Of a stretch of DNA of 64,000 bases, positions 33,176-33,465 are shown piece after piece. Position numbers and translations under genes: made by a program. Within the stretch, counting starts at the first letter, position 1; every line of letters begins with the position of its first letter. Source of the stretch: Escherichia coli (GTDB lineage: Bacteria > Pseudomonadota > Gammaproteobacteria > Enterobacterales > Enterobacteriaceae); NCBI RefSeq assembly GCF_003334355.1, contig NZ_QOWP01000007.1. One strand, given 5' to 3'. A model generated the notes under the pieces. The model worked only from the letters and a program-made list of their open reading frames with translations, did not search any database and was not told the DNA's origin.

Positions 33176-33465
33176 TCTATATCGATATACTTATACTTAG
33201 GCTGCTAACAAAATTTTGTTGTATGATTGAAATTAGCGGCCTATACTAATTTCGAGTTGTTAAAGCTACGATAAATATTATGTTTTTACGGGGACAGGAT
33301 CGTTCCCGACTCACTATGGATGGTCATTTTGGCAAGGGTTCCTCCTTTCCCTCTGTTCTACGTCGGATTATAGACTCGCGGTTTTTTCTGCGAGATTTCT
33401 CACAAAGCCCAAAAAGCGTCTACGCTGTTTTAAGGTTCTGATCACCGACCAGTGATGGAGAAACT

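Follow-up and report, generated by a model that had tools for sequence, protein, structure and literature searches.

The punC–cfa gap of an Escherichia coli genome as the two-promoter, small RNA-controlled cfa leader, with a candidate SlyA operator ahead of its distal promoter

Background

Transcription of cfa in Escherichia coli K-12 and Salmonella starts at two promoters. The distal promoter, which is sigma70-dependent, produces a 212-nt 5' UTR and the proximal, sigmaS-dependent one a 34-nt 5' UTR (PMC6755755). Regulation by small RNAs (sRNAs) is limited to the long isoform, on which RydC, ArrS and CpxQ act, as do GcvB and OxyS weakly (PMC6755755, PMC12691595). The leader has been described by Frohlich 2013 (as cited elsewhere), Bianco 2019 (PMC6755755) and Farley 2025 (PMC12691595). 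Changes in cfa expression that depend on sRNAs and on Rho have been shown in K-12 (PMC6755755, PMC12691595), and the mechanism is now thought to be mainly the control of Rho-dependent termination, not of mRNA stability alone (PMC12691595). The binding of CpxQ raises termination and that of RydC, just downstream, lowers it. In a rho-R66S mutant, regulation by ArrS, CpxQ and GcvB is abolished and activation by RydC is strongly diminished (PMC12691595).

Several elements of the long leader have been mapped. The Hfq-binding region was located at -195..-161 relative to the start codon by CLIP-seq and mutational analysis, and RNase E cleaves between G-100 and A-99 (PMC6755755). The overlapping sites of RydC and ArrS were validated by footprints and by the mutation G-101C, which is compensated by RydC C4G or ArrS C7G, and the CpxQ site by a footprint and by G-135C, compensated by CpxQ C11G (PMC6755755). 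Support for the GcvB site consists of a published IntaRNA prediction and a weak footprint. A stem-loop at +78..+97 of the leader was probed with weak-stem and strong-stem mutants, and C-to-G substitutions in the CU-rich tract that it hides abolish Rho dependence (PMC12691595). The leader is a model for control by multiple sRNAs and, from 2025 on, for the adjustment of Rho-dependent termination by sRNAs in either direction.

By analogy, the nearest counterpart elsewhere is the rpoS leader, which is subject to multiple sRNAs and to Rho anti-termination. The sRNAs acting on the rpoS 5' leader are DsrA, RprA, ArcZ and OxyS, and they mainly open a translation-inhibitory hairpin. Both leaders are long and enterobacterial, and both respond to several Hfq-dependent sRNAs that partly work by blocking Rho termination (general knowledge and PMC12691595). 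The cfa leader differs from that of rpoS in that one of its sRNAs, CpxQ, can also make Rho termination more frequent by exposing the Rho-utilisation (rut) site, and in that a short isoform bypasses the control entirely.

Here the gap between punC and cfa is described in a stretch of 64,000 nucleotides of E. coli DNA, referred to below as the window. The gap contains the cfa leader itself, rather than a mere lookalike.

The locus and its flanking genes

Two open reading frames in the ORF list border the gap on the + strand. The upstream one (31964..33175, 403 amino acids) is PunC, a purine nucleoside transporter, with an NCBIfam score of 601 bits against a cut-off of 430. The downstream one (33466..34614, 382 amino acids) is cyclopropane fatty acyl phospholipid synthase, with 702 bits against a cut-off of 400. 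The location between punC (ydhC) and cfa on one strand is therefore that of the known leader. As punC ends at 33175 and cfa begins at 33466, the gap at 33176-33465 is exactly 290 bp long, in agreement with the approximately 290 bp of the original prediction. The arrangement in K-12 MG1655 is identical, with punC at 1739911-1741122, cfa at 1741413-1742561 and a gap of 290 bp.

Upon alignment with MG1655, the gap differs at two positions, 33322 (G instead of A) and 33330 (T instead of C). Both lie just 5' of the published CpxQ site, at +69 and +77 of the leader. These two differences aside, the window is the same as K-12 at every published site. The window also shares its promoter hexamers with the long 5' UTR of K-12 and Salmonella, and the RydC/ArrS site, the CU tract, the stem-loop and the RNase E site are identical. 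Of 5426 complete E. coli genomes, 5425 carry the gap with an identity of at least 95%. One of the 5426 gap matches sits on a plasmid record instead of a chromosome. Of the genes for the sRNA partners, rydC is present in 5412 and cpxQ in all 5426 genomes.

The cfa locus was taken from 80 Enterobacteriaceae species, giving alignments of 81 sequences. The gene punC is directly upstream of cfa on the same strand in all 80 species, and the length of the gap between them ranges from 240 to 311 bp, with a median of 293 bp. Conservation was expressed as identity to the window in bins of 10 nt. It is low in the 3' coding tail of punC (0.31-0.49) and in the first 20 bp of the gap (0.35). It then rises to 0.89 at 33236-33245, 0.98 at 33356-33365, 0.97 at 33396-33405 and 0.95-0.98 at 33416-33445. 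The peaks coincide with the P1 -10 hexamer, the RydC site, the sigmaS -10 element and the Shine-Dalgarno sequence. Conservation of the gap is thus blocky and exceeds that of the neighbouring coding sequence. The last ~17 codons of punC (33126-33175) diverge across genera far more than the noncoding leader 3' of them.

Two promoters and two leaders

The coordinates of the elements are collected in Table 1. The -35 hexamer of P1 retains its TTG in all 81 sequences. Five of the six positions of the -10 hexamer are invariant in the same alignment, and the exact TATACT occurs in 76 of the 80 species. The distal transcription start site (TSS), mapped from K-12, falls on a G 7 nt past this hexamer. 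The proximal promoter P2 is embedded inside the long leader; its TCTACGCT is kept in 66 of the 80 species, at -48..-44. The Shine-Dalgarno sequence GGAG occupies 33457-33460, and GGAGAA is found at -9 in 79 of the 80 species. The first 78 bp of the gap (33176-33253) are sigma70 promoter DNA with a conserved operator-like dyad. The original prediction that the span is a regulatory leader consequently holds for 212 of the 290 bp (33254-33465) and fails for the first 78 bp, which are promoter DNA.

Since the window is identical to K-12 at these elements, the two start sites, the sRNA effects and the Rho dependence of the K-12 and Salmonella leaders are transferred to this strain, in which the same regulation would be expected.

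Table 1. Features of the punC–cfa gap, with predicted total pairing energies and z-scores against shuffled sequences for the sRNA sites
Feature	Position	Strand	Total (kcal/mol)	z	Basis
punC stop codon TGA, 5' boundary of the gap	33173..33175	+			sequence, ORF list, NCBIfam
Conserved dyad TTAGGCTGCTAA, candidate SlyA operator (-57..-46 of the sigma70 TSS)	33197..33208	.			
P1 (distal sigma70) -35 hexamer TTGTAT, 17-bp spacer	33219..33224	+			read from sequence
P1 -10 hexamer TATACT	33242..33247	+			conservation
Long 212-nt cfa 5' UTR, +1 = 33254 = -212	33254..33465	+			literature TSS mapped through K-12 alignment
Hfq-binding region (-195..-161), including the U-run UGUUUUUAC	33271..33305	+			PMC6755755, mapped coordinates
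Hairpin H1 (+36..+55), 7-bp stem CGGGGAC/GUUCCCG, GGA-containing loop	33289..33308	+			RNAalifold
GcvB pairing site (-156..-139), with GcvB nt 154-171	33310..33327	+	-14.9	-3.2 (0/60 shuffles as good)	duplex prediction; published -155..-140
CpxQ pairing site (-149..-127), bipartite duplex	33317..33339	+	-15.5	-5.2	proximal helix 33331-33338 (-135..-128) validated in literature; distal helix predicted
Predicted distal CpxQ helix, with CpxQ nt 18-24	33318-33324	+			duplex prediction
Stem-loop (+78..+97) sequestering the CU tract; 5' arm = CpxQ site	33331..33350	+			PMC12691595
CU-rich tract (+86..+101), core of the Rho-utilisation site	33339..33354	+			PMC12691595
RydC pairing site (-110..-98)	33356..33368	+	-13.6	-2.5	duplex prediction; published -109..-99
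ArrS pairing site (-105..-94), overlapping the RydC site	33361..33372	+	-8.3	-1.1 (weak alone)	prediction; published -105..-95
Hairpin H3, CUCGCGG/CUGCGAG	33375..33394	+			RNAalifold
Near-invariant block AUUUCUCACAA, just 3' of H3, 0.97 identity	33395-33405	+			conservation
P2 (proximal sigmaS) extended -10 TCTACGCT, C at -13	33419..33426	+			read from sequence; promoter from literature
Short 34-nt cfa 5' UTR from P2, TSS 33432	33432..33465	+			literature TSS
cfa start codon	33466..33468	+			ORF list, K-12 annotation, NCBIfam

Pairing of the leader with small RNAs

Pairing was scored from windowed duplex energies with penalties for opening both RNAs, against a background of 60 dinucleotide shuffles. 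Plain RNAduplex-style hybridisation of the full-length sRNAs gave implausibly long duplexes that were not better than those of shuffled sequences, and it was dropped. The scoring recovers the published sites of RydC, CpxQ, GcvB and, weakly, ArrS, whose pairing by itself is not better than chance (z -1.1). OxyS shows no pairing with the leader of the window above the shuffle background. The unrelated control sRNAs RprA and RydB, both of which are encoded in the window, show no stronger pairing than shuffled sequences (z +1.0 and +1.3, respectively).

RydC nt 2-14 are complementary to UUCUACGUCGGAU, a site that does not differ from the published RydC site; the mutated residue G-101 corresponds to 33365 and the RNase E cut to 33366/33367. 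For the CpxQ site, whose G-135 corresponds to 33331, GGCAAGGG and the CU tract are present at the sequence level and the stem is predicted. When the K-12 allele is given to the same script, the totals are -7.6 kcal/mol for CpxQ (at +77..+86) and -16.7 kcal/mol for GcvB. The published IntaRNA table lists RydC at -109..-99 (-14.13), ArrS at -105..-95 (-8.78), GcvB at -155..-140 (-17.45) and CpxQ at -135..-128 (-6.99). The K-12-allele predictions thus agree with the published sites and energies. A long cfa 5' UTR targeted by several sRNAs, as originally predicted, is borne out by the literature, by the identity of the window to K-12 and by these pairings.

The two nucleotides by which the leader differs from K-12 both add predicted pairs with CpxQ. 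With G at +69, CpxQ nt 18-24 and leader nucleotides +65..+71 are predicted to form a second, 7-bp helix that contains the pair G69–C20. The predicted CpxQ total is -7.6 kcal/mol for K-12, -13.0 kcal/mol for the G69/C77 form and -15.5 kcal/mol for the window. G69 also turns one A-U pair of the GcvB duplex into a G-U pair, and the predicted total changes from -16.7 to -14.9 kcal/mol. The differences at 33322 and 33330 could thus change the strength of the GcvB and CpxQ inputs.

U77 is private to the haplotype of the window, and the combination G69/U77 occurs in one of 5426 genomes, that of strain PSS-12. G69 is common. As counted from exact 30-mer matches, at least 67% of E. coli genomes (3644) have it, and 20% (1107) have the A69 form of K-12. 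About 12% of the genomes contain neither 30-mer exactly. Because most other genera have G69, the A69 of K-12 is the derived state. A similar bipartite CpxQ duplex is predicted for E. albertii, Salmonella, Citrobacter, E. cloacae, Kluyvera, Cedecea, Pseudescherichia and Leclercia, in some of which the distal helix is shortened or interrupted. It is not predicted for Klebsiella, Raoultella and Kosakonia, where the hexamer is GGAAGG. Among Klebsiella, Enterobacter and Kosakonia, the distal hexamer of cfa reads GGAAGG or GGACGG.

The predictions suggest that in Salmonella and most E. coli the CpxQ–cfa duplex is bipartite, with CpxQ nt 4-12 and 18-24 both taking part. The disruption of the distal helix by the A69 of K-12 may be a new observation. 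As the experimental K-12 strain carries this derived nucleotide, which would break the second helix, the CpxQ repression measured in K-12 may understate the effect in most E. coli.

Structure and proposed mechanism of the leader

RNAalifold analysis of the 81 leaders gives three local hairpins, H1, the CpxQ/CU stem and H3, and a hairpin that sequesters the Shine-Dalgarno sequence in the short leader. Compensatory changes are found in 6 of the 7 pairs of H1 and in 4 of the 7 pairs of H3. Over the three helices, 77 cells of the alignment have changed on both sides, compared to 17 ± 7 in shuffled alignments, and none of 500 shuffles reaches 77. Pairing over these helices is 97%, and falls to 35-61% with slid partners. 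The CpxQ/CU stem is paired in 99% of cells without compensatory changes; being nearly invariant, it is neither supported nor refuted by covariation. In the short-leader hairpin (33433-33465), which is predicted and conserved, UUCU pairs with the GGAG of the Shine-Dalgarno sequence. All of its pairs are invariant and hence uninformative for covariation. Folding of the whole leader is not better than that of shuffles (z -0.85).

The loop of H1 usually keeps GGA. H1 lies within the published Hfq region, and a published 3' end of the leader at +59 (PMC12691595) is 4 nt past it. H1 and H3 may act in Hfq loading, in forming the +59 3' end or in the pausing of Rho. The CU tract is found in 64 of the 80 species. 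Other E. coli, such as SCPM-O-B-8794 (L009 1271-1503), and E. whittamii have a 1-nt deletion in the tract relative to 33340-33352 (CCTCCTTT-CCT), and these carriers also differ in the H1 stem. The block AUUUCUCACAA may serve as the -35 region for sigmaS, may belong to the Rho site or may pair with the RydC site, as in the RNAalifold structure, where its partner is GUCGGA.

A search of 33100-33560 against Rfam finds no family at the gathering score or at E ≤ 1. Gathering-score matches elsewhere in the window are STnc550 (29506-29896, - strand), which abuts the start of purR, two tRNAs with an overlapping match to the antisense family HPnc0260 (38488-38769), RydB (56762-56822, - strand) and RprA (62426-62533, + strand).

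Taken together with the published work, these elements suggest the following mechanism. The weak sigma70 promoter P1 would produce the 212-nt leader, with an Hfq site and H1 near its 5' end, and the embedded P2 the 34-nt leader. The stem-loop at +78..+97 would hide the CU-rich Rho-utilisation tract. CpxQ, made under Cpx envelope stress, would pair with the 5' arm of this stem, exposing the tract and increasing premature Rho-dependent termination, and would therefore repress cfa. GcvB, pairing just 5' of the CpxQ site, would repress weakly. RydC and the acid-induced ArrS would pair immediately 3' of the CU tract (33356-33372). There they would cover the 3' portion of the Rho site and protect the RNase E cut, and would therefore activate cfa. 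The short sigmaS transcript, which is without these sites, would escape sRNA control. The output of the leader would be the level of cyclopropane fatty acid synthase and, through it, the acid resistance of the membrane.

Alternative and favoured readings of the gap

The gap could be imagined to hold only promoter DNA and a short leader, with the proximal promoter acting alone and the upstream ~250 bp being spacer or 3' flank of punC. A start site near the coding sequence is indeed real, at -34 (PMC6755755), and a generic scan of 33000-33600 for promoter and terminator consensus sequences finds no sigma70 promoter and no terminator. However, the scan is blind to both promoters, as P1 agrees with the consensus at only 8 of 12 positions and P2 belongs to sigmaS. 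The proximal start is not the sole one, because a second TSS has been published at -212. A transcript with the 212-nt leader has already been detected in K-12 and Salmonella, and only the long isoform answers to the sRNAs and to Rho. Furthermore, the TTG of the -35 and the near-invariant -10 hexamer of P1 are correctly spaced across the 81 sequences, and the RydC site is ~98% conserved, unlike spacer. This reading is extremely improbable. Equally hard to credit is that the conservation stems from a small protein. A 53-aa open reading frame (33280-33441, + strand) is present in the mechanical ORF list. Its ATG, however, is found in just 36 of the 81 aligned sequences and is not preceded by a Shine-Dalgarno sequence, and the alignment contains many 1- and 2-nt indels inside the frame. 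Moreover, the conservation is in short blocks at the sRNA and promoter sites, without a codon pattern. On the grounds of the missing start codon and the non-triplet indels the frame was rejected as a gene.

Somewhat less remote, though still unlikely, is the presence in the leader of an additional, undescribed cis-acting structured element, formed by H1, H3 or both, which would act as a sensor for a ligand or protein, like a riboswitch or a protein-binding leader. The compensatory changes in these two hairpins, contributing to a signal that no shuffle equals, speak for such an element, as do the GGA motif kept in the H1 loop and the position of H1 in the Hfq CLIP region, close to a mapped 3' end. 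Against this, Rfam yields no match even at E = 1, the global fold is unremarkable, H1 and H3 are short, simple hairpins, and H1 is partly explained already as Hfq-binding region.

We consider it highly probable, from the agreement with K-12 and the conserved elements, that the gap is the E. coli cfa control region with the published two-promoter, sRNA- and Rho-controlled leader. The contention that the region is not empty spacer is supported by its blocky conservation, with peaks on promoter, RydC-site and Shine-Dalgarno elements, and by the fixed gene order in all 80 species. An sRNA-controlled cfa leader is a correct description, but it is already known textbook biology of E. coli and Salmonella. 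In this respect, the window provides a correctly recognised and fully annotated control region that adds nothing to the literature.

A SlyA-type dyad upstream of P1

The dyad in the promoter DNA resembles a SlyA operator. The SlyA consensus is TTAGCAAGCTAA, with the minimal form TTAN6TAA, according to the K-12 SlyA regulon paper (PMC5797941). The dyad fits the minimal form and matches the consensus at 10 of 12 positions. Across the 81 sequences its TTAG and GCTAA carry ~2 bits at each position and are as invariant as the -10 hexamer, and the three central bases vary freely. Invariant arms around a free centre are typical of a protein-bound dyad. A TTAN6TAA site is located 31-33 bp ahead of the P1 -10 hexamer in 78 of the 81 sequences. 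The match to the SlyA 12-mer is 12/12 in 10 species, 11/12 in 38, 10/12 in 20 and 9/12 in 10. By comparison, the remaining 301,710 positions of these loci contain only three sites that match at 10 or more of the 12 positions.

Only one other site in the 64-kb window matches the 12-mer at 10 or more positions. This is the perfect match TTAGCTTGCTAA (12821-12832), which lies 11 bp ahead of the SlyA ORF (12370-12810, - strand; NCBIfam). It is the known slyA autoregulatory site (PMC5797941) and serves as an internal positive control for the motif. Compared to the SlyA operator at PslyA and ydhI, the cfa dyad is upstream of the -35 hexamer and not over the core promoter.

Two other regulators were considered for the dyad and dropped. 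The DeoR operator is TGTTAGAATTCTAACA, and DeoR was dropped because the central bases and the outer TG of its operator are not kept. The GAD box of GadE was dropped because conservation of the dyad extends well outside Escherichia.

In Data Set S1 of a 2025 RNA-seq study of a Salmonella slyA mutant, cfa has a log2 fold change of +2.20 (padj 2e-17) and is thus 4.6-fold derepressed. The direction is the same as that of the directly repressed ydhI (+4.75) and marRA. The main text of that study is without comment on cfa. The available part of the E. coli K-12 SlyA regulon paper does not mention cfa (PMC5797941). Apart from the supplementary RNA-seq table, the literature searched contains no link between SlyA and cfa, no listing of cfa as a SlyA target and no SlyA binding data at cfa.

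From the conserved dyad and these expression data we infer that SlyA directly represses P1. It would plausibly do so by occluding the A/T-rich, UP-like stretch that separates the dyad from the weak -35 hexamer. The derepression of cfa in the Salmonella mutant could also be an indirect effect, for example by way of RpoS or YieP/RydC. The joint reading, in which a SlyA operator occupies -57..-46 and a bipartite CpxQ duplex is broken by the A69 of K-12, has in our view about an even chance of being correct. Among the elements of the gap, the candidate SlyA operator is the only one with a real chance of novelty.

Implications

At the RNA level, the A/G polymorphism at +69 predicts differences between strains in the control of cfa by CpxQ and GcvB, and it suggests that K-12 is unrepresentative for the CpxQ interaction. 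At the DNA level, a SlyA operator, if confirmed, would bring transcriptional control into a circuit that has been described almost wholly in terms of RNA, and would explain the unremarked derepression of cfa in Salmonella slyA mutants. The gene cfa would then be an ancestral, directly repressed member of the core SlyA regulon, and a sensor of aromatic carboxylates and of iron or respiratory status would be linked to the cyclopropanation of the membrane.
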